The notes below the pieces were generated by a model. It saw nothing but the letters and a program-made list of their open reading frames with translations, did no database searches and was not told where the DNA came from. From Promethearchaeota archaeon (GTDB taxonomy: Archaea; Asgardarchaeota; Thorarchaeia; Thorarchaeales; Thorarchaeaceae), in NCBI GenBank assembly GCA_027031765.1, contig JALVPN010000208.1, forward strand, positions 1,714-24,081: a DNA stretch of 22,368 bases, read 5' to 3'. A program made the position numbers and the translations under genes. Position 1 is the first letter of the stretch; each line of letters begins with the position of its first letter. Positions 5,602-20,200 of the stretch are shown in pieces.

Positions 5602-6264
5602 ATGACGGTCGAAGAAGAGATTGTGGAGATCACGCTCAGGTCACTTGCGGTATCTGGACTTGCCACCCTGCTGGCAGCGGCTGCCGGCATCCCGCTTGGA
5701 CTGTTCCTCGGTCTTGCGCGTTCCAGGGGTCGGGACATGCTGACCGGAGTGTTCAGGGGTCTGATGAGCATGCCCACCGTCGCACTTGGCCTGGTGCTCT
5801 ACGTCATATTCTCAAGGAGCGGCCCTCTCGGCGTGTTCAGACTGCTGTACACGCCGCTCGCACTGGTCATCGGGCAGGCCCTGCTCGTGTTCCCAATTGG
5901 AGTCAGTATCACAGCTGAGACCTGCACCGCTCTGTCTTCAAGAGTCCGCGAACTGGCCCTGACCCTCGGCGCTGATGAGCGTGGCGCCACCGCTGCCGTT
6001 GTCCGTGAGTCGCTGGGTGGCATCATGCTCGCTGTTTCCGCGAGCTTCAGCAGGGCGGTCTCAGAACTCGGCGTAGCACTCATGGTGGGTGGCAACCTGG
6101 AGGGCATCACACGGGTACTGACCACCTCGATTGCCCTTGAGACCACCCGGGGTGAGGTCGTCCTCGGGCTTGCCCTGACCGTCGTCCTGCTGTCGATAAT
6201 GGTCGTCTTCAATGTCGTCCTGAGGTCGGCCGAGCAGCGCATCAGGTGGTGGCTGTGGCAGTGA
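5602..6264 (+). CDS. tupB: Tungstate ABC transporter permease
   Basis: About 5 TM segments with MPTVALGLVLY, GPLG, LTLGA (EAA loop) and SFSRAVSELGVALMVGGNLEGITRVLTT. Lies directly after tupA. Confidence 0.88.
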   Translation: MTVEEEIVEITLRSLAVSGLATLLAAAAGIPLGLFLGLARSRGRDMLTGVFRGLMSMPTVALGLVLYVIFSRSGPLGVFRLLYTPLALVIGQALLVFPIGVSITAETCTALSSRVRELALTLGADERGATAAVVRESLGGIMLAVSASFSRAVSELGVALMVGGNLEGITRVLTTSIALETTRGEVVLGLALTVVLLSIMVVFNVVLRSAEQRIRWWLWQ

Positions 6265-7370
6265 TCCAGCTACGGTCTGTCACCGTCCACTTTGGCCCCA
6301 CACGTGCCCTCAGCGACGTTGACCTCGAAGTCCGGCGCGGTGAGCTCCTCTCCGTCCTAGGTCCGAACGGCTCCGGGAAGACAACACTGTTGCGCGTGGT
6401 CGCAGGCCTGCTCCAGCCCAGTGATGGCACTGTCCTGCTCGATGGGACGCCTGTTTCACGGGACACACTACACGGTCTGCGCCAGCGTGTGACCATGGTC
6501 TTCCAGCGGCCCGTCGTCTTTGGTACCACTGTCTTCAACAACGTGGCGTATGGGCTCAGGCGGCGTGGCCTGTCAGAGTCAGAGGTGGCCGTCCAAGTGG
6601 AAGAGGCGCTGAGACTTGTAGGGCTTGACAGCCTGTCCACACGCCATGCCCGTTCACTGTCTGGTGGAGAGCAGAAGCGGCTGTCCTTGGCAATGGCCCT
6701 CGTCACACAGCCGGAGCTACTGCTGCTTGACGAGCCGACCGCATACCTCGATGCAGAGGGCGCCGACATGGTCTGGCGCTTGGTGGAGTCGCTCCGTGGC
6801 ACCGGCACCGGTATTGTCGTTGCCACGCACGACCTGTTGGGCATGACCCCATTGAGCGACCGGGCCGTGTTCCTCCGGGCTGGACACGTGGTCAGTACCA
6901 GAGAGGCCCATGGACATGTCATGGACGGGCTGGCTGCAATTGACGTGGTGGCCCCGGAACGGAACGTCTACCACGGGCACGCCAGGCTCCTACCGGGTAG
7001 CAGCACCGGCCCCTACCGTGCCCTCGTCCAGATTGCCCCGTCGGTGACCATTGAGGCCCTTGCCCACCATGGCGGCGAGGTCCGCGTGTCCGTCCCGCCC
7101 GAAGACATTGCTCTCTCTGTCACACCGGTCATTTCCAGTGCGCGCAACTCACTTCACGGACGTGTCGTGGGCGTGGAGCGGCACGGTGATTTGGCGGTGG
7201 TCTCAGTGGATGTTGGTGTGGTCTTCAATACACTTGTGACCGCCGAGTCGCTCGCGCGCCTGGACATCAGAGAGGGCACAGCGGTCTACGTCACTTTCAA
7301 GGCGTCCTCAGTGCGCGTCTACAGTGCGGGCGCCGGGACCGGTGGAGGCGATATGCATGACCAATCATAA
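6261..7370 (+). CDS. tupC: Tungstate/molybdate ABC transporter ATPase with C-terminal TOBE domains
   Basis: Walker A GPNGSGKTT, Q-loop FQRP, signature LSGGE, Walker B LLLLDEP, H-loop ATHD, and a TOBE-like SARNSLHGRV...VTAESLARLDIREGTAVYVTFKAS. GTG start overlaps the tupB stop (GTGA). Confidence 0.85.
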   Translation: MIQLRSVTVHFGPTRALSDVDLEVRRGELLSVLGPNGSGKTTLLRVVAGLLQPSDGTVLLDGTPVSRDTLHGLRQRVTMVFQRPVVFGTTVFNNVAYGLRRRGLSESEVAVQVEEALRLVGLDSLSTRHARSLSGGEQKRLSLAMALVTQPELLLLDEPTAYLDAEGADMVWRLVESLRGTGTGIVVATHDLLGMTPLSDRAVFLRAGHVVSTREAHGHVMDGLAAIDVVAPERNVYHGHARLLPGSSTGPYRALVQIAPSVTIEALAHHGGEVRVSVPPEDIALSVTPVISSARNSLHGRVVGVERHGDLAVVSVDVGVVFNTLVTAESLARLDIREGTAVYVTFKASSVRVYSAGAGTGGGDMHDQS

Positions 7371-8400
7371 CAGTTATCACGGGGCCCGACCGACGCGTGC
7401 CCCACCAATGACGGCGACACCGCAGGTAGTGCACATGGTCGGCCCCACCGGGGGGCGCAGGCTCGTGGACACCTATGGCCGGCCAGTGACCCATCTCAGG
7501 GTCTCGGTCACCCAGCGATGTGACCACAGGTGTTTCTTCTGCCACCGCGAGGGCGAGACCGCACCCGGCCCTGAGCTCCCGGCTGACGCGGTGGAACGGG
7601 TCGTCCGGAAGTGCGTCGAGTACGGCGTCCACACAGTCAAACTCACTGGCGGGGAGCCGCTCACGCGCGAGGACATCGTGGGACTGGTCAGGCGCCTGGC
7701 ACCGCTCGTGGGCGACCTGTCCATGACGACGAACGGCTCACGACTTGCAGGCCTTGCTGGTACCCTCCGGGACGCAGGCCTCACCCGGGTGAACGTCAGC
7801 CTGCACACTCTCAGTCACGAGAGACACCGCAGGATCACGGGTGTTGATGACCTTGATGCGGTACTGCGTGGTGTGCGGGCTGCAGTGGACGCGGGCCTGT
7901 CACCGGTGAAGCTGAACATGACCGTGATGCGCAGCTACAATGACGACGAGATACCTGACATGCTGGAGTTCTCTGCAGAGACAGACGCGGTGCTCCAGCT
8001 GATAGAGCTGCAGCCGTTCCCCACGTCAGGCCCCACGCTCGGGAAACTGATGGTGCCCCTCGCACCGGTGGAGCGGGTACTGAGCTCACGGGCCAGACGG
8101 GTGGTGCGCCGCTCCCTACACGGCCGGAAGCAGTACGCAGTGCCGACCGGGAACGGTGAGGCCCTGGTGGAGGTCGTGCGGCCGCACCACAACAGTGTGT
8201 TCTGTGCGAACTGTACGCGCCTCCGGGTCACGTCAGACGGAAAGCTCCGCCCGTGCCTGCTCAGGGACGACAACCTCGTGGACGTCTCACGGTTCCTGTG
8301 CGACGACGGGCCCGAGAACGCTACAGCACTCGACGCAGCACTGGACCTCGCAGTCAGGTTGAGAGAGCCGTACTGGAAAGGGGCTGTCAGCAATGATTGA
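7357..8400 (+). CDS. moaA: GTP 3',8-cyclase (radical SAM)
   Basis: DTYGRPVTHLRVSVTQRCDHRCFFCH (CxxxCxxC), LTGGEP, TTNG, and C-terminal FCANCTRLRVTSDGKLRPCL. The start is uncertain (7357 has a GGAGG RBS; 7408 and 7435 are alternatives). Confidence 0.93.
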   Translation: MTNHNSYHGARPTRAPPMTATPQVVHMVGPTGGRRLVDTYGRPVTHLRVSVTQRCDHRCFFCHREGETAPGPELPADAVERVVRKCVEYGVHTVKLTGGEPLTREDIVGLVRRLAPLVGDLSMTTNGSRLAGLAGTLRDAGLTRVNVSLHTLSHERHRRITGVDDLDAVLRGVRAAVDAGLSPVKLNMTVMRSYNDDEIPDMLEFSAETDAVLQLIELQPFPTSGPTLGKLMVPLAPVERVLSSRARRVVRRSLHGRKQYAVPTGNGEALVEVVRPHHNSVFCANCTRLRVTSDGKLRPCLLRDDNLVDVSRFLCDDGPENATALDAALDLAVRLREPYWKGAVSND

Positions 8401-8803
8401 GGTCACAGAGGAGGACTTCTCTATCGACGCGGTCGTGCGGAGGACACTCGCACCGTCAATGGGTGCTGCAGTGATGTTCCTTGGTGTCGTGCGGGACCGC
8501 ACCGATGGGCGTCCTGTCGACCGCCTTGAGTTCGAGTCTGATGACGAGTCCGCAGTGTCCGAGCTCCAGGCCATCAGGCAGGAGGCCATCGAGAGGTTCG
8601 GGGTCACTGAGGTGTCTATAGTCCACCGGAAGGGCCGGCTGGAGGTGGGCGAGGACATCGTACTCATAGTGGTCGGTGCGCCCCACAGGGACGCAGCCTT
8701 CGCAGGGTGCAGGTATGTCATTGAAGAACTGAAGAAGCGGGCCCTGATCTGGAAGAAGGAGTTCATTGATGGCGTGGGCCACTGGGTCGGTGGTGTGTCA
8801 TGA
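8393..8803 (+). CDS. moaE: Molybdopterin synthase catalytic subunit
   Basis: GAAVMFLGVVRD, HRKGRLEVGEDIVLIVVGAPHRDAAF, ELKKRALIWKKE. Confidence 0.93.
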   Translation: MIEVTEEDFSIDAVVRRTLAPSMGAAVMFLGVVRDRTDGRPVDRLEFESDDESAVSELQAIRQEAIERFGVTEVSIVHRKGRLEVGEDIVLIVVGAPHRDAAFAGCRYVIEELKKRALIWKKEFIDGVGHWVGGVS

Positions 8804-9246
8804 AGGAGGACGACCCGCTGCACATGGTGGACATCTCCGACAAGACACCCTCAGCGCGCGAGGCCGAGGCTGTCGGGACGATTGTGCTCCGGCCTGAGAC
8901 CGTCAGTGCAGTGCGTGACGGCACTATCAAGAAAGGCGACGTACTGACAGTGGCCGAAGTCGCGGCTATTCAGGCGGCAAAGCACACACCGGACATAGTG
9001 CCGTTGTGCCACCAGGTCCCACTCACATCCGTGCAGGTCTCGTTCTCGCTGGAGGTTGACGGGGTGGTAGTGAGGTGTACTGTGCGGGCGCACTACTCCA
9101 CAGGCGTGGAGATGGAGGCCCTGACAGCCGTGTCCGTTGCCCTGTTGACCATCTGGGACATGGTGAAGTACCTTGAGAAGGACAGCAGTGGCCAGTACCC
9201 CACTGCAAGGATCACAGATGTCCGTGTCGTCAGGAAGGAGAAGTGA
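8800..9246 (+). CDS. moaC: Cyclic pyranopterin monophosphate synthase
   Basis: HMVDISDK, KKGDVL, AAKHTPDIVPLCHQVPL, TGVEMEALTAVSVALLTIWDMVK. Confidence 0.95.
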   Translation: MKEDDPLHMVDISDKTPSAREAEAVGTIVLRPETVSAVRDGTIKKGDVLTVAEVAAIQAAKHTPDIVPLCHQVPLTSVQVSFSLEVDGVVVRCTVRAHYSTGVEMEALTAVSVALLTIWDMVKYLEKDSSGQYPTARITDVRVVRKEK

Positions 9247-9758
9247 CCGCAGTGACACACACAGAGCACAGACGTGACCAGAAGGTATCAGCAGGCTTTG
9301 GTATCCTGACAGTGAGCGACAGCCGCACCCTCGAGACCGACGAGTCCGGGGAGCTCGCCGCCAGGCTTGTGGTCGAGAGTGGCCACAGGGTCGTACAGCA
9401 CCTGCTCGTGAAGAACCGGCGTGCGGACATCCTCCATGCACTGACATCTATGCTCTCGGACCCCGGAGTCCAGGTCGTCGTCACAATTGGTGGCACTGGT
9501 GTTGGTGAACGGGACGTGACCGTTGACACCGTGACGCCGCTCTTCGACAAGGAACTCCCCGGCTTTGGCGAGCTGTTCCGCCGCCTCAGCATGGAGGAGA
9601 TTGGTATGCCTGCAGTCTACAGCCGTGCAACGGCGGGCCTCATCGGCCGCGTGGTCGTCTACTGTCTGCCAGGCTCTAAGAATGCGGTTGCCACTGGTGT
9701 GGGCCGCATAGTGCTCGACGGCCTCGGACACCTGCTGTGGGAGGTGAACAGGCGGTGA
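9243..9758 (+). CDS. moaB: Molybdopterin adenylyltransferase, MoaB/MogA family
   Basis: ILTVSDSRT...DESG, TIGGTGVGERDVT, KELPGFGELFRRLS, SRATAG, LPGSKNAV. GTG start overlaps the moaC stop. Confidence 0.92.
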   Translation: MTAVTHTEHRRDQKVSAGFGILTVSDSRTLETDESGELAARLVVESGHRVVQHLLVKNRRADILHALTSMLSDPGVQVVVTIGGTGVGERDVTVDTVTPLFDKELPGFGELFRRLSMEEIGMPAVYSRATAGLIGRVVVYCLPGSKNAVATGVGRIVLDGLGHLLWEVNRR

Positions 9759-10975
9759 GCCCCATGGAACCCTTCAGGCTCCTCGTGTCCTTCGAGGAGG
9801 CGCTCGAAACACTCATGCGTCACTGCCGGCCTGTGGACGGGAGCGAGTCCGTAGACATAAGCAGTGCGTGTGGCCGCGTGGTGAGCACCGACGTGGTCGC
9901 ACAGCAGGACGTACCACCCTTTGACAGGGCCGCAATGGACGGCTACGCAGTGGTGGCGTCGGACACGTTCCCGGCCACGCAGCAACCGGTCGTGCTTGAG
10001 GTCACAGGGAGGCTCCATGCTGGAGAGGCCCCCTCGACCGAGGTGACACCGGGCACATGCGTCCAGGTCGCGACCGGGGCGCCGCTACCGCCCGGGGCCG
10101 ACGCTGTGGTAATGGTGGAGTTCACCGAGGAACAGGACGGCAAGGTGTCTGTCACACGTCCCGTCTACCCGGGGGCCAACGTATCGCGTGCGGGCGAGGA
10201 CATCGACAGGGGTCAGGTAGTGCTCAGGAGCGGCACGTATCTGACACCCGCACGCGTAGGCGTCCTTGCAGCCCTTGGAATGACATCTGTGACGGTCTTC
10301 AGGCGGCCAGAGGTCGCGGTAGTCCCTACTGGTCGTGAGGTGGTACCACCCGGCCGACCACTGCGTCCGGGCCAAGTCTTTGATGTGAACTCCTTCACCC
10401 TTGAGGCGGTTCTGCGTTCCAACGGTGCTGTGGTGCGCCGGCTACCGGTGGTCACCGACGAGTACGGGGCGCTCCGCTCTGCAGTCGAGTCGGCGGCACA
10501 GAGCTGCGATATGGTCGTCCTCTCCGGTGGCAGCTCGGTCGGCGAGAAGGACCTGCTCGTTGGCGTCATAGAGGAGCTCGGTACTGTACATTTCCACGGT
10601 GTCCAGGTCAAGCCCGGCAAGCCGACCCTGTTCGGCACTGTTGGCGACACGCCTGTGCTCGGCATGCCCGGCTATCCGACATCCTGCTTGAGCAATGCCT
10701 ACATGTTCCTCCTACCTGCGGTCCGCAAGATGGCTCGTCTGCCACCCAGACATGAGCACCGCATCGTGGTGCCCCTGGCAAAACGGTACGTGTCGTCCTC
10801 CGGTAGAAAGCAGTTCCTCACGGTCCGGGTCAGTGACGGGCATGCATACCCGGCCTACAAGCACTCTGGGGCCATCACCAGCATGTCAGACGCCGATGGG
10901 TATGTGGTACTCCCGGTCAACCTCGATGTGATAGAGGAGGGCGAGGAGGTCGAGGTGGTCATGTTCGACCAGTAG
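9755..10975 (+). CDS. moeA: Molybdopterin molybdenumtransferase
   Basis: DVPPFDRAAMDGYAV, ATGAPLPPGADAVVMVE, TGREV, DVNSFTL, SGGSSVGEKD, VKPGKPT, MPGYPTS. Start is GTG 9755 (overlapping the moaB stop) or ATG 9764. Confidence 0.95.
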   Translation: MSPMEPFRLLVSFEEALETLMRHCRPVDGSESVDISSACGRVVSTDVVAQQDVPPFDRAAMDGYAVVASDTFPATQQPVVLEVTGRLHAGEAPSTEVTPGTCVQVATGAPLPPGADAVVMVEFTEEQDGKVSVTRPVYPGANVSRAGEDIDRGQVVLRSGTYLTPARVGVLAALGMTSVTVFRRPEVAVVPTGREVVPPGRPLRPGQVFDVNSFTLEAVLRSNGAVVRRLPVVTDEYGALRSAVESAAQSCDMVVLSGGSSVGEKDLLVGVIEELGTVHFHGVQVKPGKPTLFGTVGDTPVLGMPGYPTSCLSNAYMFLLPAVRKMARLPPRHEHRIVVPLAKRYVSSSGRKQFLTVRVSDGHAYPAYKHSGAITSMSDADGYVVLPVNLDVIEEGEEVEVVMFDQ

Positions 10976-11088
10976 GCACCGGGCCACCGCTCGCAGATCA
11001 CAGGCACACGGCGTTAGGGCTCCCACGCCTTTCTGAGCCTGGCCGGCCGGTGGCAAGAGATATTACGGTGTGCTGCAAGTTGAGGGAC

Positions 11089-11319
11089 ATGCGACGCCGG
11101 TTCACTATCAGGCTATCCGAGGACTACCGCAGTCGGTTCCTCCGGACGAACCAGCGCTACCGGCTCGGTTATACGTCTTTCACGCAGTTTGTAAGGGACT
11201 GTCTGCGCAGGCGTTTCGAGGAGCTCGACCGGGAACATGGGAGACCACTCGGCGACGATGACGGCGCGCACAGGGTAGCACCGGGTGTGAGGCCACACCG
11301 GTCCCCATCCCCCCACTGA
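11089..11319 (+). CDS. Small ribbon-helix-helix (CopG/NikR-N-like) DNA-binding protein
   Basis: MRRRFTIRLSEDYRSRF...GYTSFTQFVRDCLRRRFEEL fits a beta-strand-helix-helix pattern with the typical Y-x-S-x-x-x-FVR motif. RBS GAGGGA precedes ATG 11089. Confidence 0.6.
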   Translation: MRRRFTIRLSEDYRSRFLRTNQRYRLGYTSFTQFVRDCLRRRFEELDREHGRPLGDDDGAHRVAPGVRPHRSPSPH

Positions 11320-11325
11320 CTTGGG

Positions 11326-11350
11326 AGTATCAACGGATAACTGCTATAAG
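11326..11350 (+). promoter_or_regulatory. Putative promoter copy 1: AGTATCAAC-N9-CTATAAG
   Basis: 20/25 identical to 13114-13138 with the same spacing; contains a TATA-like CTATAAG. Confidence 0.65.
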
Positions 11351-11577
11351 TCCGGCCTGCAACTGGTGTGATTGCCGCAGAGTCATGTGTGGACGGGGCG
11401 CCAGACCGTGTTAGTCACTGGACCGCAGGCGCCTACTAGTCGCACGGGTCAGGACGCACAGCGGTCAGACGGGACCCCGTGCCCCTGGAGTCCCTGTCCA
11501 TACTTACAGAAGACACGTCGGTGCAGCAGACCAGAGGAATAACATTCATGCGGCCCTTGAGCTGGAGGCAATAGCGA

Positions 11578-12939
11578 ATGGACTTTCACTTGGCAATGGA
11601 GCTCGGTGCTCTGATGAGCGCGGCTGTGAACGCGGTCGCCTTTGGGGTCTACGTCCACAGGGTATACCCTGCGCGGCATGACCTCACCCCAGAAGTGTAC
11701 AGGGCACTTGTAGGCCTTGGCATGGGCGGAGCGATGTTCGCGGTCGTGGGCTTCTTCTCTATGGTGTACCCCTCTCTGAACATCCTGTTCACAGCGTGCT
11801 TGTATGCACTGCTCCTGTACGGTACTACTCACCTCGTAGTGACACGCCCGGGCCGCAGGAGGGCCGTGCTGGTAGTGCTCTTCTTATTGCTCTTGGGAGT
11901 CGTCGCTGATATGGTCCTCTCCAGACTTGTCGGGGGCATCCCACACATCGGCCTGGCAGTCAGTATGCCGGTGCTGGTGCTGGGCTGCATCATAGGTAGC
12001 GCGTACCTACAATACAGGTCGCCCTCGACAGTCAGCGTGGGCCTCGTTGTCCTGACCCTCTCATCAATAGTGGCATGGCTCCTCTCACGGACCGGCGTCT
12101 TGACCGCCCACCCGGAGTACTTCGTGTTCCCCATCATACCAGGACTTGTGGCCGCGAGTATGATGTTCACAGTGATGCGTTCGTGGCGCAGCGCTGTTTC
12201 TGCATTCGTCGTCCTGCTGGCCCTGGTGAACTCCATCGCCCTGTCTGTCCCTGCACTGCTGGCGGGCGACACTGAAATCCTCATCTACTCTGTGCTCACG
12301 CTCTTCGTATCACTGTCTATTTCCGTCCCCTTCGACTACTTTGTTGACCAGGCCATCACGACACACACCATGACGCCTGCGTACATCTCTGCCACACTCG
12401 TCAGTGTTGCACTGCTGATTATCTTCAACGCCAACTTCTATGCCGTCTTCAAGGAAGCACACTACTTGGACCCGTGGTTGATGTGGGTCGAGTTGGTCTT
12501 CGGCCTGGCTGCAATCACGTCGTTCATCCTCGCCCCAATGGCGCTGGCCTTCTCGTCAAATGCCAACCGTGCAACGCTGGACGTCATGCTGGCCTTCGAC
12601 GCGGTCGCTGCCACGGCCATCGTCCCGCCTGTGAGGTACGTGACCATAGAGGGTGTGCTGTACAACAGGTTCTTACTGGACGACCTCTTTGTGTACCTTG
12701 GCATACCCATCGCGTTCGGGGTCATCGCCTTCCTCTACGTGATCCACAGGCTCCTGAAGGTCGGTGCCCGGGCAGTGGCACTGCGGTTCATGATATTCAT
12801 GTCCGCCTCGGTCAGCATCGGCGTGGTAGCCATGTTCTCAGACACAATGGCCATTGAGACAATCTCCGTCCTGATGGTGGCCGCCGGTATGCTCCTGCTC
12901 TCTTCGAGCCCGAGGCTCATGTTCAAACGGTACCGGTGA
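11578..12939 (+). CDS. Uncharacterised multipass membrane protein (about 15 TM), paralog A
   Basis: 453 aa, hydrophobic throughout, RBS GGAGG upstream. Collinear with 13870-15249 (MDF, YRAL, YALLL, HPEYF, P-DYF--QA, RFM-FM, VAMF-D, SP). Confidence 0.85.
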   Translation: MDFHLAMELGALMSAAVNAVAFGVYVHRVYPARHDLTPEVYRALVGLGMGGAMFAVVGFFSMVYPSLNILFTACLYALLLYGTTHLVVTRPGRRRAVLVVLFLLLLGVVADMVLSRLVGGIPHIGLAVSMPVLVLGCIIGSAYLQYRSPSTVSVGLVVLTLSSIVAWLLSRTGVLTAHPEYFVFPIIPGLVAASMMFTVMRSWRSAVSAFVVLLALVNSIALSVPALLAGDTEILIYSVLTLFVSLSISVPFDYFVDQAITTHTMTPAYISATLVSVALLIIFNANFYAVFKEAHYLDPWLMWVELVFGLAAITSFILAPMALAFSSNANRATLDVMLAFDAVAATAIVPPVRYVTIEGVLYNRFLLDDLFVYLGIPIAFGVIAFLYVIHRLLKVGARAVALRFMIFMSASVSIGVVAMFSDTMAIETISVLMVAAGMLLLSSSPRLMFKRYR

Positions 12940-12968
12940 CCTGACAGCATGCGGTGTCTGGGAGACCC

Positions 12969-13040
12969 CGCCCATGTGATGTGTCGTGTTTCAAGTGCCA
13001 TCGTGGCCCCCCTGTTGATAGGCCCCACATCGAGTGGGCG
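12969..13040 (+). terminator. Putative 3' stem-loop after paralog A
   Basis: CGCCCATGTGATGTG (12969-12983) pairs with CACATCGAGTGGGCG (13026-13040): 12 Watson-Crick pairs, 2 G-U, 1 mismatch. There is no U-tract. Confidence 0.35.
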
Positions 13041-13113
13041 AGTCGGGACCTGGTACGTGTCAGCTCGTCCGAAGAGACCCCCATGGCCTGTGACTGCCGT
13101 GTCTTCCCCGTAT

Positions 13114-13138
13114 AGTATCAACAAAGAACGCCTATAAG
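13114..13138 (+). promoter_or_regulatory. Putative promoter copy 2: AGTATCAAC-N9-CTATAAG
   Basis: Matches 11326-11350; ends 53 nt upstream of ATG 13192. Confidence 0.7.
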
Positions 13139-13191
13139 GGTGACATGCAGCTCCTTTTCAAAGTGGACAAGGATATTAGGATGTCTTTGAT

Positions 13192-13470
13192 ATGAATCTC
13201 GTATTCTCCTGTCCTAAGTGTTCCGCCGCCGGAGAAGTCCGCTTCTCCGACGAGGACATTGAGCAGATACGAAAGGCAATACTGGAGAACGGCCGCTCGC
13301 CAACTGTGATCTCAAGGTGTGAGAATGGCCATGAGGTGATAATCACGCTGTATCTCAGGGACGACAAGCTCGGCATCCGCGACATAGCAACCCCACTCGA
13401 CACGGGCACTCAGGGCGAGGAGAAAAAGATGGGAGAACTAGACTGGCTCAGGAAGGCCTTTGGAGGTTGA
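13192..13470 (+). CDS. Small Zn-ribbon-like protein with a C-terminal amphipathic helix
   Basis: CPKC...CENGH metal-ligand set and C-terminal ELDWLRKAFGG. An in-frame stop upstream (13177) fixes the start. Confidence 0.75.
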   Translation: MNLVFSCPKCSAAGEVRFSDEDIEQIRKAILENGRSPTVISRCENGHEVIITLYLRDDKLGIRDIATPLDTGTQGEEKKMGELDWLRKAFGG

Positions 13471-13474
13471 AGTT

Positions 13475-13852
13475 GTGGTAGTCCGCCTGATTGCACGGGT
13501 GAACCTTGAGGACATGAAGTCCACCGTACTGTTCCCCCCTGACGGTGGTGACGAGGGCCGCATTGCACTGCTGACCGGCATTGTGCAGCTTATCTCGGCT
13601 GCACTTGAAAGTGCTGGCGGCCCGCATGGCTCTGGCTCGGGGACTCGGTTCATGAAGTCTGAACGTGGTGTCATCGCATACCAGATTGTCGAGCCGTTCC
13701 TGTTCATCGCAGAGGGGGACACCGAGAACGAGACCAGCGATGCGATTCAGGCGGTAATCAAGGACCCAGAGATCTCAGGCAAGCAGCTTGTAGAGCGTTT
13801 CTCCGATGAGGTCGAGCGGCGGGCACGCGAGATTGGAGACCTCTGGCGCTAG
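13475..13852 (+). CDS. Longin-like domain protein (putative)
   Basis: RBS GGAGGT precedes GTG 13475. By eye the pattern is beta-beta-alpha-beta-beta-beta-alpha-alpha: VRLIARVNL / STVLFP / RIALLTGIVQLISAAL / TRFMKS / GVIAYQIV / FLFIAEG / two helices. Confidence 0.6.
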   Translation: MVVRLIARVNLEDMKSTVLFPPDGGDEGRIALLTGIVQLISAALESAGGPHGSGSGTRFMKSERGVIAYQIVEPFLFIAEGDTENETSDAIQAVIKDPEISGKQLVERFSDEVERRAREIGDLWR

Positions 13853-13869
13853 GGGGTGGTTTCTAGGGT

Positions 13870-15249
13870 ATGGACTTCTCTCTTACTCTGATAACTGCTG
13901 TATACCTGGCTGCTGCAATCACAGTGGTGGCCGCGGCGACGTATGGACGACGCCTGTGGCAGATCCGGGACGCTCTGTCCACACCGACCTACCGCGCACT
14001 AGCATGGTTTGGTATGGCCGGTCTGGCATTGGTCTTCACGGCCGTCGTAGGCGTGCTCATGCCATCCCTTGACTTCGTGGCGTACGGGCTCGTCTATGCA
14101 CTGCTCCTGGTCGCGTCACTGAACCTGGTCATCACAGACACCAGACGCCTGAAATGGGCGGTCGGCGCAGTGCACACGGTACTGGTCGTCCTAGGAGTGT
14201 CGTGGCTACTCTCACCACTGCATGACCTGCTGGTGCTCCAGATGCTGTCACTGACCGGTCTCTTTGTTGCCTGCGTCGTGGTCGGCATCGTGTTCCTCAG
14301 GGCAAGTCCCTCAATGGTCAGTGTTTCCAACCTTGCAGTGGCCATTGTGACCCTCATCTCGTGGGTGTACGTACGTTCCGGTCTACGTGATATGCACCCG
14401 GAGTACTTCCTGCTACTGGTCTTGCCCGTCAGTATGGTGGCCTCTATGATGTTCTCCATCCGGAGGCCGTGGCGCCGGACGATCACCTACTTCATCGTGA
14501 TCACGATGACGTTGAACGGCATTGCCCTGCTGGTACCGGCCGCCTCGGACGGACAGACCGAGATAGCGACCTACGCCGCCCTGTCCATGGTCGTAGGGCT
14601 CACTATGGGCCTGCCGCTCGACTACTTCATATATCAGGCCGTGTCAACGAGGGCCCGCACTCCAATCTACATCTCGATGACGCTCGCAGGCACTGCAATG
14701 CTAGTGATGACCCACTGTGTGAACTACGCGATTGCCCACAGTCACATCGGCTACTGGGACTCGTGGATAATGTTCGTGGACTGGGTTCTCGGACTCTTTG
14801 CAGTGTTGTCGTTCATTGTGGCTGGTGTGGCAGCGAGCTTTTCACCGTCAGTCCGCAACGCAGCCCGCGAGGTCATGATTGTGGTCGGGTTCGTGATGGC
14901 CACTCTGGGACTGCCATCCCTGCGGTTCCAGGAACACAAGGGCACCATGTACGAGGTCTGGAACCTCAACTCGCTGTACCCTGTCATGCTTGTCCTGATT
15001 GGTATTGGCTTCTTGGTGTTCTTCAGAGTGATGTACCAGCTCTGGAAACAGGGCGCTTTGGGTGTCGCGGCGCGGTTCATGGCGTTCATGGTCGGCTCGC
15101 TGAGTCTTGGCCTCGTGGCAATGTTCGCTGATGTCTTCGGGATTGAAGTACTGACCATACTCGTGGTGGGTGCGTGCGTCCTGCTCTTCGTGGTCAGTCC
15201 ACACTCTCTTGACATCTTCAGGAGGTCACACGGTGAGCATGCCGCGTAG
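13870..15249 (+). CDS. Uncharacterised multipass membrane protein (about 15 TM), paralog B
   Basis: 459 aa, hydrophobic, collinear homology with 11578-12939. Confidence 0.85.
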   Translation: MDFSLTLITAVYLAAAITVVAAATYGRRLWQIRDALSTPTYRALAWFGMAGLALVFTAVVGVLMPSLDFVAYGLVYALLLVASLNLVITDTRRLKWAVGAVHTVLVVLGVSWLLSPLHDLLVLQMLSLTGLFVACVVVGIVFLRASPSMVSVSNLAVAIVTLISWVYVRSGLRDMHPEYFLLLVLPVSMVASMMFSIRRPWRRTITYFIVITMTLNGIALLVPAASDGQTEIATYAALSMVVGLTMGLPLDYFIYQAVSTRARTPIYISMTLAGTAMLVMTHCVNYAIAHSHIGYWDSWIMFVDWVLGLFAVLSFIVAGVAASFSPSVRNAAREVMIVVGFVMATLGLPSLRFQEHKGTMYEVWNLNSLYPVMLVLIGIGFLVFFRVMYQLWKQGALGVAARFMAFMVGSLSLGLVAMFADVFGIEVLTILVVGACVLLFVVSPHSLDIFRRSHGEHAA

Positions 15250-15269
15250 CAGTGAGGAGGTGTGATACA

Positions 15270-15812
15270 TTGGCAGTAATCAAGGTGGTGGTACTCGGGG
15301 ACACAGAGGTCGGCAAGACGTCGTTCACTGTCCGCTGGACGCAGGGCACCTTTCCGAACCCAGCCCTGCTGAGGACAACGGTGGGCGCCAGTTTTGACAC
15401 AAAAAAGGTCACCCTGCCAAGTGGACGTGAGGTCACCCTCTCCGTCTGGGACTTTGGGGGCCAGCGACGTTTCAGTGAGGCCCTCAAGCACATGATACGG
15501 GGCGCAAAGGCGGGCCTCTTCTTTTTTGACGTCTCACACCTCCCAAGTCTAGACAGCCTGTACAGCTACTGGGTACCTGCAGCCGAGGAGTTCGGCAACT
15601 TCTCTTTCGAGGACGGCGATGGGACAAGGTTCATCCTTGTGGGCAACAAGATTGACCTCTTGGGGAGCGACTTCTCTGCCGTGGAGGCCGAGATGCGCAG
15701 GTTCAGCGAGCGGTTCGGCACCGAGCACGTCCTGATCTCCGCCAAGACCGGCGTCGGCATTGAGGCCTTGGACTTCAAGTTCAAGGAGCTCCTAGACAGG
15801 GTCCTGGAGTAG
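15270..15812 (+). CDS. Rab-like small GTPase (Ras superfamily)
   Basis: G1 GDTEVGKT, G2 TTVGASF, G3 WDFGGQ, G4 NKID, G5 SAKT. TTG 15270 follows the RBS GAGGAGGTG. There is no C-terminal Cys. Confidence 0.93.
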   Translation: MAVIKVVVLGDTEVGKTSFTVRWTQGTFPNPALLRTTVGASFDTKKVTLPSGREVTLSVWDFGGQRRFSEALKHMIRGAKAGLFFFDVSHLPSLDSLYSYWVPAAEEFGNFSFEDGDGTRFILVGNKIDLLGSDFSAVEAEMRRFSERFGTEHVLISAKTGVGIEALDFKFKELLDRVLE

Positions 15813-15886: not shown

Positions 15887-16963
15887 TCAGTCACCCGGAG
15901 CGTACCACTCCACCGGTACTGTGTCTATCACCTCTTCCACAGCAGGCGGCAGTTCTGCACCTCTGAACTTCGAGGCAATCCTGATACTGCAGTCCGGGGG
16001 GAGAGTCATGTCAGCAAGGCTGTGACAGGAGTGGAGCGGGCTGAGGTCGAGAGTCCTGATGTCGTTCTCTTCGAGCTCGCTCTCGCTGGCAATGTAGAGC
16101 TCTTCAAGGGCCGTGCAGCCGGCTAGCGGCCTCAGGTCGAGGGCCGACAAGCGGTTCCTTGCCATGTCGAGGGACACAAGCTCACCGGCCGCATGTAGTG
16201 GTCCAAGGTCGAGGTCAGTGAGCTCATTCAGTGCAAGCCCAAGACGGGACAGGTGGCGGCAGGCGGCGAGGGGTGACAGGTCGATTCTTGAGAGGCGGTT
16301 CCCACCGAGCCGCAGGATACGCAGTTCGTGGCACGATGCGAGGGGCGTCAGGTCGACCTCTGTCAGCTGGTTGTGGTGGAGGTACAGGTACCGCAGTGCA
16401 CGACATGACGCGAGGGGTCGGAGGTCGAGTCGGGCGAGCCTGTTGTACATGAGGTTCAGCAGTTCGAGGTGAGCACACGGTGCCAGCGGGGTCAGGTCGA
16501 CTCCGCTCAACATGTTGTTCTGTAGTTCGAGGCCCTGCAGCTGCGTACACACTTCCAGTGGGGCGAGGTCGATAGCCGCAATCCCGTTGTCGAACAGCCG
16601 CAGGCGTCTGAGTGCCGGCAGCTCCCGGACAGCCCTCAGGTCAAGGTCGCCGAGCTGGTTCGAGCCGAGGGCCAGGACCTCCAGCCTTGGGCACTCTCCA
16701 AGTGGACGCAGGTCAACCTCCGCGAGCTGGTTCTTCGTGAGGTGTAGTTCTCGGATCTCCGACCCCGCCAGTGGTGTCAGGTCTATCCCTGTCAGTTTGT
16801 TGTTGCTGAGATCCAGCACCTCCACCTGCGGACACTCTGATAGCGGTCCGAGGTCGATGGCAGTTATGTTCCTCCGGCTGAGGTCAATGGTGGTCGTCTC
16901 TTCGTCGACTTCGACCTCAACCGTCTTCACAGGCGTCCTGCACCTCAGTGTGACGTAGCACAA
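15887..16963 (-). CDS. Leucine-rich repeat protein (about 12 repeats of 24 aa)
   Basis: Consensus LxxLxLxxNxLxxIDLxPLxxCxx, for example LRYLYLHHNQLTEVDLTPLASCHE. TTG start with AGGTGA upstream. Confidence 0.92.
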   Translation of the reverse strand: MCYVTLRCRTPVKTVEVEVDEETTTIDLSRRNITAIDLGPLSECPQVEVLDLSNNKLTGIDLTPLAGSEIRELHLTKNQLAEVDLRPLGECPRLEVLALGSNQLGDLDLRAVRELPALRRLRLFDNGIAAIDLAPLEVCTQLQGLELQNNMLSGVDLTPLAPCAHLELLNLMYNRLARLDLRPLASCRALRYLYLHHNQLTEVDLTPLASCHELRILRLGGNRLSRIDLSPLAACRHLSRLGLALNELTDLDLGPLHAAGELVSLDMARNRLSALDLRPLAGCTALEELYIASESELEENDIRTLDLSPLHSCHSLADMTLPPDCSIRIASKFRGAELPPAVEEVIDTVPVEWYAPGD

Positions 16964-17279
16964 TGCTGCCCACTCACCTTTCTAGGCCCGACTTGTGGCA
17001 GCGCCTATTGAGTCTTCCCACGCATCAGGTCGGAGGCCGTCCCGCCACAGGCAGGGCCACAAGTCCACAGGGGGCCTCGTGGGCGCGACTGTCGCCGACG
17101 TCGCGGACTGCGGGGCTGTCCCGAGAACGTTTATCTTGACTGGCAGTACCTACAGTAGCTGGTGGACTCGCCGCCGGCCCTCTGAGACCGTGCACGGCAA
17201 AGTGGGTTACACTGTTCTACACCTCCTCATTGTCGTCACCGTCGGGCCCTCCGTCCATCAATGCAGGAGGAACTTTGCA

Positions 17280-20200
17280 TTGTACCGTAGTCGTAGGACA
17301 GCAGTCCCGTCGGTCGTAGTCCTGTCGCTCTTTGTACTCTCAGTGGCGTACTCTGTGCCGGTTGTGTCGGTGCCGACCGCAACGCCGACGGGCGACCACA
17401 CACCACGCCAGGTCGGGCCACAGGCCTCGGGACAGTCGAGTGCGGGCACTACCGTTGATTGGGAGCGTGACATCGGGACACGTGACGAGTCGTGGACCTA
17501 CCAGTCGAACACATGGCTCTTCGGTCCGCGACCCACCATCTCGATAAGACACGAGAATGACAGCGAGGTCGGCACCGGACACCTGGAGCTGGGGGAAACA
17601 GTCCACGCCCTGGCCACCGTTCCAAGGAGCGCGGTCTTTCAAGGCGCCTCGATTGACCGTGTGACTGTGGACGGCACTATGCTCACGCCGAGGACAGACC
17701 TGGGTGCACACTTCACCCTCTCATTCTCGGTGGCAGAAACGGTCTCGTGGACTGTTTTCTCGTCACAGTACAACGCATCTGCAACCCCCAGCCACTCCCA
17801 TGTGGGCTTCGTTGACCTCTTTGTGGGCCGGTGCACCAACTGGAGCGGTCCTGACAACTACTACATCCTCTTTGTGTTCACGTTCAATACCAACGCCTAT
17901 CCCGGTCTCTACATGTTCACGATTGATGTAGCCGATACTAGCGGGGCCCATACCACCACCGGTGGCTACTCGGGCGGCGGGGTTTCCACGGAGGTCGCGG
18001 TCGGCATGCCCCACGACCAGGCCGTGACCCTCGCTTACTCTGGCCGCTACACGCTCCAGAAACTCGACCTGGACGGCAATGCCCTGTACTCCGTCAGCAG
18101 GGGCAGCGACTTCACCATGCGGGCCAACGTCACTGGTACAGCGATAAGCTACGCCGTCCTGAAGTTCAGGCCCCCATCGTCCACACTCAGGACCGTCAAC
18201 CGGACAGGGTGGCACTACGAACTGGTGACGGGACACGGTGGATGGGTCTACAACGGCTCGCTGGGGATGTACGTCTGGAACGCGTCCGTCGACATCTCCT
18301 ACTACGCCCGGGTACTTGGTGTCTACTCCAAAACAGAGTACGAGTACAGGGACTTCACCAAGACGGTCACCACCAGAGCTTTGGTACGGAACAGTACCAC
18401 CCAGCAGTTCGAGGTGGTGTACAAGAACAGGACAGTCCCCCTCTATTTTGGGGTGCTCTACAATGCCACCACGGACACGTTCTCGGTACTGTACACATAT
18501 GACTACGAAACATACCCCTATGACCACTACGTCCCGGGGACGAACACCATCACGGTCACTGAGTACGACCCCGTCCCCCCCGATGACCCGCACTACTACG
18601 AGGTCAACCACACTCTCTCCGATGCCCACTGGTCAGACAACGTACTGGTCGTGGACTTTGTCGGCCACTTCACCTCTCTGATGCCAGTGAGTGATGATGC
18701 CTCCTCTTGGGTCAATATCGAGGACGTGGTGGTCGATGACCAGGGCCGGTACTGTGTCCCAGACGCATTCCTACCCGGTGCCCACCAGTCCATGAACGAC
18801 TACGACATGGCCCGGCAGGTCACACTGGACTACCCGGTCGTGGTCGCCTCACTGCTCGCTGCCGACGGCTCGGAGCTCGGGACACAGGTGTTCCAGACAG
18901 ACATCAACAGCCCGTTCATGGTGCGCGCACGGCTTGAGGGTGGGGCCAGCCTCGCGGACGACATGGACGCAGTTGGGCTGACGCTCACTACACTTGTGAG
19001 TAACTGGTCTGATGTCGAGAGGCTGTACAGCGACCTGGTCCTCAGTATCGACTGCTTCTTCAACGGCAGCGCACAGTTCTCTGCCTTCAACTACACTGTC
19101 AAGGAGAACTACACGTACTCCGTACATGAGGACTGGGTGCTGGTGAACAGTACCGGGTGGCACAAGTTCTACAACAAGTCCTCCGGTGCGTGGGAGTGGA
19201 CGTACGGTGACTACTCCTCGTGGGAATGGGTCGAGGTCGAGGGATGGCACTGGACCAAATGGTACTACAACCAGCTCACACAGGAGTGGCAGGTGGCACC
19301 TGTCTACCCACGCAGCGCCGAGACCGTGGTCGCAGAGGACTTCGCCTCCGTCAGTCAGGTCCAGGAGTGGGTGGACAGGGGCAGCCTGTATGCGTCCTTC
19401 GTGGTGGACATCACTGGCAACGTCCCCGACGCCACGTACTACTGGGACGTGGCCTTCCTCAACAACACGCTCTACGTGGACACATCGTCCACGTTCGGTG
19501 CCCACACCATGGTCTCCTGGGGCCGCGACTGGGTGTACAGCTTTGACCATGGGGGCCAGCGCGTCCATGTCGAGAGCTTCAGGCACGACCAGCTCGGGTA
19601 CTTCAACAGCACACTGTGTGCGGCCCAGGGCTCTGACTACCTGCTGGGCCATGAGAGCCCGTACATCATCCTCAAGGGCGAGGTGCTCCCGCTTAGGACA
19701 TACGATGTCTACGACGCAGCCACAGGTACCACACAGGTCAAGTTCTTCTTCAATGACCGCTACGACCCCATCAGCAAGAGGGAGTACTACCACTACGAAC
19801 TACAGAACGGATCGTGGGTCACGGTCACCTACTCGGACGCGGTGGTCGTGTACAATGTCACAACTCCTGGCGGCGACACGTTCCTCACCACAACCGACAA
19901 CCCCATGCTCCTCCCACACGGTGGCGGGTTCCTCTACGTGTGGTACGACCTCGATGGTGTGACCCACGCTGGCACAGCTGCGGAGTATGGGCCCGACAAT
20001 GTGCAGGTCGACGCGGTTGACCGGATTGGTCTCACAGAACCGCGGGACAAGTTCTTCGTACTGTATGGTGCTGACGCGGATGTCCTCTACCTGTCGCGGT
20101 ACTGGGACTGGGACTCGACAGCCTCGATATACTACATGACCGATGTCAATGGCACACGGTACGACCTCTCCTACAACTCGACTTCCGGCTTCTACTACGC

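Follow-up and report, generated by a model that had tools for sequence, protein, structure and literature searches.

The conservon of actinobacteria brings together a membrane sensor kinase, a roadblock protein of the MglB type, a DUF742 protein (a probable guanine nucleotide exchange factor [GEF]), and a small GTPase (PMC13343842, PMC13621833, PMC4316618). In Asgard archaea, Liu et al. described an operon that encodes a LAMTOR1-like roadblock protein, a Rab-like GTPase, and a DENN protein, and they reported that most such genes are not in conserved neighborhoods (bioRxiv 10.1101/2020.10.19.343400). In the Lokiarchaeon MK-D1, genes for small GTPases do not as a rule share operons with roadblock, longin, or TRAPPC3 genes, and the introduction to that study lists longin homologs for Loki and Odin and not for Thor (Tran et al., PMC10933270). 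A 2026 preprint mentions Asgard seven-transmembrane (7TM) proteins and a cluster that resembles class C G protein-coupled receptors (GPCRs), with no GTPase linkage (bioRxiv 10.64898/2026.10.28.762692). Here we analyze a 22,368-nucleotide (nt) stretch of DNA (the window) from a Promethearchaeota archaeon of the family Thorarchaeaceae (assembly GCA_027031765.1, contig JALVPN010000208.1, positions 1,714 to 24,081), and we find in it a cassette of four genes, encoding a Zn-ribbon protein, a longin-fold protein, a polytopic membrane protein, and a Rab-like small GTPase, that is conserved in relatives. The contig has a G+C content of 60%, and the genome (2.95 Mb, 95% complete) has 17 matches to the small GTPase, which is typical of Asgard archaea. 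No description of the cassette was found in the literature searched, and the module is real, conserved, and apparently undescribed.

Five co-oriented genes span positions 11578-15812 of the window, the cassette being preceded by a second membrane gene:

11578-12939, + strand: MemA (membrane paralog A, 453 amino acids), a member of the double-7TM family
13192-13470, + strand: Zn-ribbon protein (92 amino acids), a Brz-like C2-CH zinc beta-ribbon
13475-13852, + strand: longin-fold protein (125 amino acids), GTG start, a candidate GTPase regulator
13870-15249, + strand: MemB (membrane paralog B, 459 amino acids), 7TM + linker transmembrane (TM) helix + 7TM
15270-15812, + strand: Rab-like small GTPase (180 amino acids), TTG start

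The GTG start of the longin gene (13475) and the TTG start of the GTPase gene (15270) were set by alignment with homologs; a longer longin frame starting at TTG 13460 had no homolog support and was rejected. The Zn-ribbon, longin, MemB, and GTPase genes are separated by 4, 17, and 20 nt, and in every one of these three gaps a GGAGG-like or G-rich motif lies a few bases 5' of the start codon (GAGGAGG ~8 nt before the TTG of the GTPase gene), as expected of internal ribosome-binding sites on one mRNA. The refined gene calls agree with an initial annotation of the window, made from the sequence alone, which gave the same five co-oriented genes and the same gaps and proposed that all five form a membrane-coupled GTPase system. 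A search of sequencing runs with the window DNA returned no RNA run and only one DNA run, from a hydrothermal-vent metagenome that is probably the sample of origin, and an Rfam scan of the whole window gave zero matches.

We compared the window proteins by tblastn with 17 loci derived from a profile of the membrane protein and 37 loci derived from a profile of the longin-fold protein. The order and orientation of the genes (Zn-ribbon, longin, one or two membrane genes, GTPase) were identical in all 17 and all 37 loci, with the Zn-ribbon gene always first. Among 45 nonredundant cassettes, 22 had a single membrane gene between the longin and GTPase genes and 11 had two, and all 33 of these complete cassettes had the same order. 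Eleven of the remaining 12 were apparently cut by contig ends, and the last was a complete Zn-ribbon-longin-membrane unit without a GTPase gene of its own that is followed directly by a full cassette. These layouts define the conserved unit: it consists of four genes, encoding the Zn-ribbon protein, the longin-fold protein, the membrane protein (in one or two copies), and the GTPase. The initial annotation had named loss of gene order in other genomes as an outcome that would count against a linked system, and the order proved invariant in every complete cassette. Its proposal that the genes are functionally linked therefore stands, and the membership it gave does not, because four genes are conserved and MemA is a lineage-specific extra.

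In searches of whole genomes within the same GTDB family, the membrane profile matched 17 of 24 and the longin profile 39 of 85; for other families of the phylum, the respective counts were 0 of 16 and 0 of 315. Many of the cassette-negative genomes are incomplete metagenome-assembled genomes (MAGs). The module is confined to one family of Thorarchaeota. Occurrence is patchy even within genera (14 of 28 genomes in one genus, for example), and it is all or none: in the 24 family genomes searched with both profiles, the membrane and longin proteins were both present in 17 and both absent from 7. At its usual site in relatives, the cassette lies between two gene blocks, one with leucine-rich-repeat (LRR), thioredoxin-domain, thioredoxin-reductase-like, glutaredoxin, and rubrerythrin-like genes and the other with 2-oxoacid:ferredoxin oxidoreductase genes. 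Four cassette-negative genomes have both flanking blocks with the cassette missing between them, and at this syntenic site the module is gained or lost as a whole. The window cassette is intact in a context that differs from that of its relatives, downstream of a molybdenum cofactor cluster.

The components also diversified together. The split of the membrane tree into types I and II corresponds to a single branch in the FastTree trees of the GTPase (support 98), the longin-fold protein (98), and the Zn-ribbon protein (94), a concordance that includes genomes carrying both types in tandem and that is to be read with the knowledge that the type label was defined on one of the four trees (the membrane tree) and that related genomes are not independent. 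Every GTPase seems to have partners of its own. Identity to the window proteins is 52-69% for the GTPase, 35-55% for the Zn-ribbon protein, 33-53% for the longin-fold protein, and 23-36% for the membrane protein, which is the fastest-evolving component. Together, the invariant order, the all-or-none occurrence, and the co-diversification are a strong argument that the four genes work together, and we consider it very probable that they form one functional module that includes the membrane protein.

Some loci carry more than one unit or a damaged one. Full type I and type II cassettes lie in tandem at L014, L015, L030, L039, and L042. At L022/L041, a Zn-ribbon-longin-membrane unit, which lost its GTPase gene, is followed directly by a unit of all four genes. 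The membrane gene is apparently broken in two relatives: at L036 (2689-4076) it is split into pieces of 140 and 329 amino acids, and the copy at G011:C65 (25807-27156; L005/L016) contains one in-frame TGA. These could be sequencing errors or decaying copies.

The cassette resembles the conservon in being a four-gene operon for a sensor-type membrane protein, a protein of the roadblock/longin superfold, a small accessory protein, and a Ras-superfamily GTPase, and also in its frequent tandem duplication, sometimes with loss of one component (the GTPase gene). It differs from the conservon in that the membrane protein is a double 7TM protein with no histidine-kinase or HAMP domain, the regulator has longin and not MglB/roadblock topology, the accessory protein is a zinc ribbon and not DUF742, the GTPase is Rab-like with DxxGQ and not MglA-like, and the host is an Asgard archaeon. 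For three of the four parts, sequence homology was not detected, and a Pfam search of the five window proteins gave neither a kinase nor a HAMP or DUF742 domain. Because these defining domains are absent, the cassette is an analog of the conservon, its nearest counterpart among prokaryotes, and not a member. With the operon described by Liu et al. it shares the conserved Asgard pairing of a Rab-like GTPase with a roadblock/longin-superfamily protein, for which regulation of the nucleotide state was proposed; the Thorarchaeota cassette lacks DENN, adds a polytopic membrane protein and a zinc ribbon, and is found in one family, whereas that operon occurs in most Asgard lineages.

Against Pfam Ras, the GTPase scores 92.4 bits (cut-off 21.6; E = 3e-26). 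Across 20 orthologs, the motifs GxxExGKT, TTxG, DFGGQ, NKxD, and SA(K/R)T show little or no variation, and G1-G5 are all intact, including the catalytic Gln in DFGGQ. The nearest solved relatives are Rab28 (6e-20), Ypt7/Rab7 (1e-17), Rab21 (3e-17), and Thor-Rab (7ezb, 5e-17). Orthologs are 54-74% identical and, where named, all come from Thorarchaeota, some being annotated "Rab family GTPase"; in NCBIfam, the only informative match for the cassette proteins was TIGR00231 (small_GTP). The tails of 21 aligned orthologs contain no C-terminal Cys, which places these proteins outside the strict, prenylated Rab family, and the window GTPase has no N-terminal Gly2. The GTPase had been annotated as Rab-like and without a lipidation site, and both statements hold. 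Thor-Rab likewise has no C-terminal Cys prenylation motif (PMC10933270). As the GTPase has no site for a lipid anchor, it needs a protein partner to reach the membrane.

An AlphaFold2 model of MemB based on a 39-sequence alignment (pLDDT 94.2, pTM 0.91) has 15 TM helices, in line with the ~15 counted in the initial annotation, and a C-terminal helix. In the model, a first 7TM bundle (residues 1-201, helices 3-195) is joined by a linker TM helix (202-226) to a second 7TM bundle (230-442), which has a short beta-hairpin in one outer loop and is followed by a polar cytoplasmic C-terminal helix (444-458). Lys and Arg are concentrated in the odd-numbered loops, which by positive-inside analysis puts the N terminus outside and makes both bundles N-out/C-in; their shared orientation is made possible by the linker helix. 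The 3+1+3 layout of SWEET transporters follows the same principle as this 7+1+7 layout. When the N- and C-terminal 7TM halves were compared with hhalign, no in-register similarity was found (probability 12%), so an internal duplication is not detectable by sequence.

In a structural search of 48,161 solved chains run without a Foldseek prefilter (VIA), the top 50 matches to the MemB model were nearly all GPCRs, the exceptions being Ost-alpha, two designed GPCR-like folds, and a small number of microbial rhodopsins. The matches divide between MemB residues 1-203 and 226-459, with ~190-215 residues aligned at Z scores of 10-14.9; helical bundles reach Z ~14 without kinship in the calibration of this search, and what we claim is therefore a shared fold and connectivity, not homology. 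The best matches were ADGRL3 (Z 14.9; root-mean-square deviation 3.6 Å over 187 residues) and a designed GPCR-like fold (Z 14.8); ADGRV1 matched residues 230-451 at Z 14.0, and mGlu2, GABA-B, and microbial rhodopsins gave Z 10.5-13.8. In the ESM Atlas, the second bundle matched HisKA_7TM sensor kinases and 7tm_1 receptors. Language-model neighbors of the membrane protein were hypothetical proteins of ~220-240 amino acids, about the size of one bundle, with one cluster carrying HisKA_7TM in 10% of its members. With GPCRs, HisKA_7TM proteins, and microbial rhodopsins, the modelled protein thus shares a seven-helix N-out/C-in bundle, and in its second bundle a cytoplasmic helix after the seventh TM helix. 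It differs from them in having two bundles per chain with a linker TM helix, in lacking sequence similarity, and in having a retinal lysine in neither seventh helix; furthermore, the G protein linked to it is monomeric and Rab-like, not a heterotrimeric G-alpha.

When 1.84 billion representative proteins were searched exhaustively with a HMMER profile, only 48 relatives of the membrane protein emerged, all with the same architecture and, when full length, of ~440-480 amino acids. Pfam and NCBIfam gave no match, including to 7tm_1-7, HisKA_7TM, 7TMR-DISM, and Bac_rhodopsin. The initial annotation had not recognized the family and had allowed that it might prove to be an unrelated transporter family: Pfam, NCBIfam, and the profile search contain no such match and no other sequence family for it, and only the type of fold, modelled as two GPCR/rhodopsin-type 7TM bundles, can now be recognized. 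Named orthologs of the membrane, longin-fold, and Zn-ribbon proteins are annotated "hypothetical protein." We are confident that the family represents, as modelled, a new 7+1+7 architecture without annotated relatives.

Conservation in this family is biased toward the cytoplasm. Mean conservation is 0.49 in the predicted cytoplasmic half versus 0.43 (Mann-Whitney p 0.003), and 35 of the 46 most conserved positions lie in the cytoplasmic half. Among the conserved positions are an S-x2-R-P-W-R loop that follows TM7, a turn from TM9 to TM10 with the sequence F-x2-Q-x3-T-x-A-x2-P, and single residues behind TM13 (Gly) and TM15 (Pro).

MemA and MemB are 35% identical over their full length (E = 3e-79), as expected of the paralogs that they had been taken to be. 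In a maximum-likelihood tree of 50 membrane proteins, the two are sisters (support 100/99) on long branches; MemA therefore arose by duplication within this lineage and is a recent, lineage-specific duplicate of MemB. In the cassettes of other genera that have two membrane genes, the "first" and "second" copies fall into separate clades, and these 11 cassettes derive from an older duplication, separate from the event that gave MemA and MemB. MemA has no Zn-ribbon, longin, or GTPase gene of its own. It retains the near-invariant cytoplasmic residues (including R199/W201/R202, F253, P265, G395, F406, and P444), and its start matches the conserved N terminus of the family, MDF, so MemA looks functional. 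The identity between the two paralogs is 32.9% in the outer part and 40.6% in the cytoplasmic part, a difference that is not significant (Fisher p 0.11). The idea that MemA and MemB form a heteromer as a feature of the system has to be given up in its general form, because MemA is lineage specific.

The protein described at first as longin-like has that topology in its AlphaFold2 model (pLDDT 79). The modelled order, beta-beta-alpha-beta-beta-beta-alpha-alpha (strands 5-10 and 16-20, helix 27-46, strands 58-62, 65-72, and 75-81, helices 84-95 and 102-123), is that of the longin domain (PMC10933270). VIA matched the model to roadblock proteins (LAMTOR Z 10.0, p14 9.4, MK-D1 roadblock 8.9) and to longin proteins (CPLANE 9.2, SYBL1 8.6, VAMP7 8.4, DENND1A 8.3, TRAPP 8.0). 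Longin targets align with residues 1-118 of 125, including the C-terminal helices, and roadblock targets with residues 1-99 only; unlike a roadblock/LC7 (MglB-type) protein, the model begins with two strands and has no N-terminal helix, with the core superposing at Z 8-10. A shape search of the Atlas gave TRAPP sybindin (TM-score 0.68) over residues 1-118. Curated longin families (Pfam Longin, Sybindin, Sedlin_N, and Fuz_longin_1) matched none of 20 members at E <= 0.05, the only hits being chance ones to PK_C, and a sequence-profile search of the PDB with the family found nothing significant. Language-model neighbors, which we treat as leads only, were Asgard clusters annotated as Fuz/Mon1/HPS1 first longin (0.89) and Roadblock/LAMTOR2 (0.88). 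R29 is invariant in the family and is one candidate functional residue.

In fold, the protein is like the longin Rab GEFs (Mon1-Ccz1, Fuzzy-Inturned/CPLANE, HPS1-HPS4, and the sybindin and sedlin subunits of TRAPP), and its partner GTPase is nearest to Rab7/Ypt7. It differs from them in being a single domain of 125 amino acids with no Pfam longin match, roadblock proteins match its core equally well or better (LAMTOR at the Z score given above), and a role as a GEF is putative.

In the Zn-ribbon protein, the residues C7, C10, C43, and H47 are invariant, and so are the GRSPT loop, one R-D pair, and the C-terminal motif D-W-x4-F-G. All 20 members match Pfam PF23454 (Zn_ribbon_Brz) weakly at E <= 0.05 (best 5.5e-7), the window protein scoring 18.6 bits and so below the cut-off of 27.9, and the Atlas cluster of the protein is also named Zn_ribbon_Brz. 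In Halobacterium salinarum, Brz is a small Cys/His zinc-finger protein that is encoded directly upstream of the bacterio-opsin gene and is needed for bop mRNA (PMC2253796). The likeness extends to gene arrangement, as both are small archaeal zinc beta-ribbon genes directly upstream of, and co-oriented with, a gene for a protein with a 7TM fold. The Thorarchaeota protein differs from Brz in its score below the family cut-off and in an additional conserved C-terminal half that bears the D-W-x4-F-G motif, and the parallel may be coincidental.

The reading of the module that we prefer, and to which we give an even chance, is that the locus works as a membrane-anchored, receptor-coupled small-GTPase switch. 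The double-7TM protein would be a sensor or a docking platform, whose conserved cytoplasmic face would hold the soluble proteins and whose fast-evolving outer face would vary between lineages. The longin-fold protein, probably with the Zn-ribbon protein, would set the nucleotide state of the unlipidated GTPase in the manner of a GEF or GTPase-activating protein (GAP); the GTP-bound GTPase would relay to an output. The physical contacts in this scheme, the direction of regulation, the signal, and the output are all things that we infer. In its favor we count, besides the invariant gene order, the operon-like spacing, the all-or-none occurrence, the co-diversification, the modelled 7TM bundles with their conserved cytoplasmic side, and the intact but unlipidated GTPase, that the longin-fold superfamily regulates small GTPases, that the conservon provides a precedent in prokaryotes, and that the module is intact in a changed genomic context.

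A number of points weigh against the switch. The resemblance of the membrane protein to 7TM receptors is one of modelled fold only, with no sequence family match, at Z scores that unrelated helical bundles also approach; Foldseek against the PDB returned only GPCRs and rhodopsins for the membrane model, with weak E-values of 0.04-0.17. The Zn-ribbon protein resembles Brz, which regulates transcription, and the linkage could in part be regulatory and not physical. The cassette contains no conserved effector gene, and its patchiness, its tandem duplications, and its fast membrane subunit also fit an accessory or conflict system. A four-chain prediction of MemB with the Zn-ribbon protein, the longin-fold protein, and the GTPase scored 0.35, compared with 0.00 when another protein took the place of the membrane protein and 0.26 when the GTPase was exchanged in this way, and we count it neither way.

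The 15-TM protein might instead be a mere receptor or anchor for the unlipidated Rab-like GTPase, with the longin-fold protein as its GEF, in a system that marks or remodels a membrane domain without any external signal, much as Yip1/PRA1-type Rab receptors or SR-beta with the longin of SRX. The affinity of the GTPase with Rab7/Ypt7, Rab21, and Rab28 fits such a role in membrane identity or trafficking, and so do the Fuz/Mon1/HPS1 neighbors of the longin-fold protein (0.89, a lead only), the CPLANE, BLOC-3, and Mon1-Ccz1 chains among its structural matches, the missing lipidation site, and the conservation of the cytoplasmic face. We consider this unlikely all the same: the module is accessory, with about half of the family genomes lacking it, which would be unusual for core membrane organization, no coat, tether, or SNARE-like gene is linked to it, and a membrane subunit that evolves fastest (23-36% identity versus 52-69% for the GTPase) fits a receptor with a variable ligand better than a passive anchor.

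We regard as similarly unlikely a more specific form of the switch, in which a GPCR-fold receptor directly controls a Ras-superfamily GTPase and the longin-fold and Zn-ribbon proteins dock on the cytoplasmic face as exchange or hydrolysis machinery. If true, the closest relatives of eukaryotes would possess a prokaryotic relay from a 7TM receptor to a G protein, a finding with a bearing on the origin of receptor-GTPase and Ragulator-like membrane signaling.

The repeated bundles joined by an inversion-linker helix would also suit a permease or channel, built as a 7+1+7 parallel repeat and gated by the GTPase and the longin-fold protein, or a transceptor; Ost-alpha, a transporter with a 7TM fold, is among the structural matches (Z 10.6), and FeoB is a precedent for GTPase-coupled transport. 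This is decidedly unlikely in our estimate, as no transporter family matches by sequence or profile, the structural matches are nearly all receptors or rhodopsins, and the conserved residues sit at cytoplasmic helix ends and loops and not along a path through the middle of the membrane.

A purely regulatory linkage, in which the Zn-ribbon protein controls transcription of the neighboring 7TM gene in the manner of Brz and the longin-fold protein and the GTPase are co-regulated passengers outside any complex with the membrane protein, is in our view very unlikely. It draws on the weak matches of all 20 Zn-ribbon proteins to Zn_ribbon_Brz, on the precedent of Brz, which is encoded directly upstream of a 7TM gene whose mRNA level it controls (PMC2253796), and on the specific, duplicated promoter motif before both units of the window. 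Strict co-diversification of four genes and all-or-none occurrence nonetheless exceed what co-regulation calls for, the invariant D-W...F-G outside the ribbon looks like a docking or membrane-binding peptide, and DNA binding has not been shown even for Brz.

Least probable of all is an accessory, GTPase-centered membrane sensor of viruses or other invaders, which would account for the patchiness within genera (14 of 28 in one), the clean presence or absence at a fixed site, the tandem duplications, and the rapidly evolving membrane subunit, but for which PADLOC models gave 0 families for the seven proteins tested, no nuclease, protease, pore-forming, or other effector domain is found in or beside the cassette, the neighbors are housekeeping redox and oxidoreductase genes and not a defense island, and many of the negative genomes are incomplete MAGs.

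The promoter motif occurs once before each unit of the window:

11326-11350, + strand: promoter/operator-like motif, copy 1, 227 nt upstream of the MemA start
13114-13138, + strand: promoter/operator-like motif, copy 2, ending 54 nt upstream of the Zn-ribbon start

The two copies follow a 25-nt pattern, AGTATCAAC-N4-AAC-N2-CTATAAG, with a TATA-like CTATAAG. The window contains two exact matches versus 0 expected (shuffled window), but the pattern was built from the same two copies that were then counted, so the test shows only that the pattern is not a generic promoter and that the pair is not due to chance. No third copy was found across the 2.95-Mb genome with <=2 mismatches allowed; the near-identical motif noticed initially upstream of MemA therefore belongs to a pair that is the only one in the genome. 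In several relatives, TATA elements of a similar kind (CCTATAAGG-type) lie ~60-80 nt upstream of the Zn-ribbon gene. A GGGAC(C/G) element, absent from the window, lies ~15-25 nt before the Zn-ribbon start in many relatives, and it could be a ribosome-binding or regulatory element.

Between copy 1 and MemA lies an untranslated leader of 227 nt (11351-11577), compared with 54 nt for the Zn-ribbon gene. Searches of this leader by blastn and tblastn found no decayed remnants of the Zn-ribbon or longin gene, and it matches no Rfam family. The leader may be the residue of a duplicated promoter-Zn-ribbon-longin-membrane unit from which two genes were lost. Directly upstream of copy 1, positions 11050-11319 (+ strand) encode a small basic protein of 89 amino acids with no family match. 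In one other genus (L022/L041), the gene for a homolog (52% over 46 amino acids) immediately precedes the cassette. Judged by eye, the 89-residue protein looks like a DNA-binding protein of the ribbon-helix-helix type, and it is a candidate regulator of the motif.

The cassette has the following neighbors in the window:

6246-10975, + strand: molybdenum cofactor cluster (molybdate ABC ATPase with a TOBE domain, MoaA, MoaE, MoaC, MoaB/Mog-like, MoeA)
15887-16963, - strand: cytoplasmic LRR protein (358 amino acids), convergent with the GTPase gene
16995-22367, + strand: open frame of at least 1791 amino acids that runs off the window, rich in Tyr, Trp, Thr, and Asn, with no Pfam match in either half

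The long open frame probably encodes a giant surface protein. Of 14 relatives with sufficient flanking sequence, ~10 have an ortholog of the LRR protein in synteny with the cassette, and the protein was considered as a sixth component. It was rejected, because an ortholog (44-50% identity) is present at the same syntenic site in cassette-negative genomes, which indicates conserved synteny and not membership.

Asgard genomes encode dozens of small GTPases and longin/roadblock proteins, and because the genes for the GTPases and their regulators are generally not in operons, they cannot be paired from genome layout (PMC10933270; bioRxiv 10.1101/2020.10.19.343400). The Thorarchaeota cassette is an exception, in which one GTPase, one longin-fold protein, one zinc ribbon, and one membrane partner are kept, duplicated, and lost together. 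To this the window adds an extra membrane gene with a duplicated motif and a changed genomic context; the presence and absence of the cassette at a syntenic site, the bias of conservation toward the cytoplasm, and the exclusion of the LRR protein are likewise new. The cassette makes it possible to test how an unlipidated archaeal Rab-like GTPase reaches the membrane, what an archaeal longin does to a GTPase, and whether a 7TM fold is involved, and it provides a specific switch, regulator, and membrane partner for such tests in organisms closely related to the eukaryotes.

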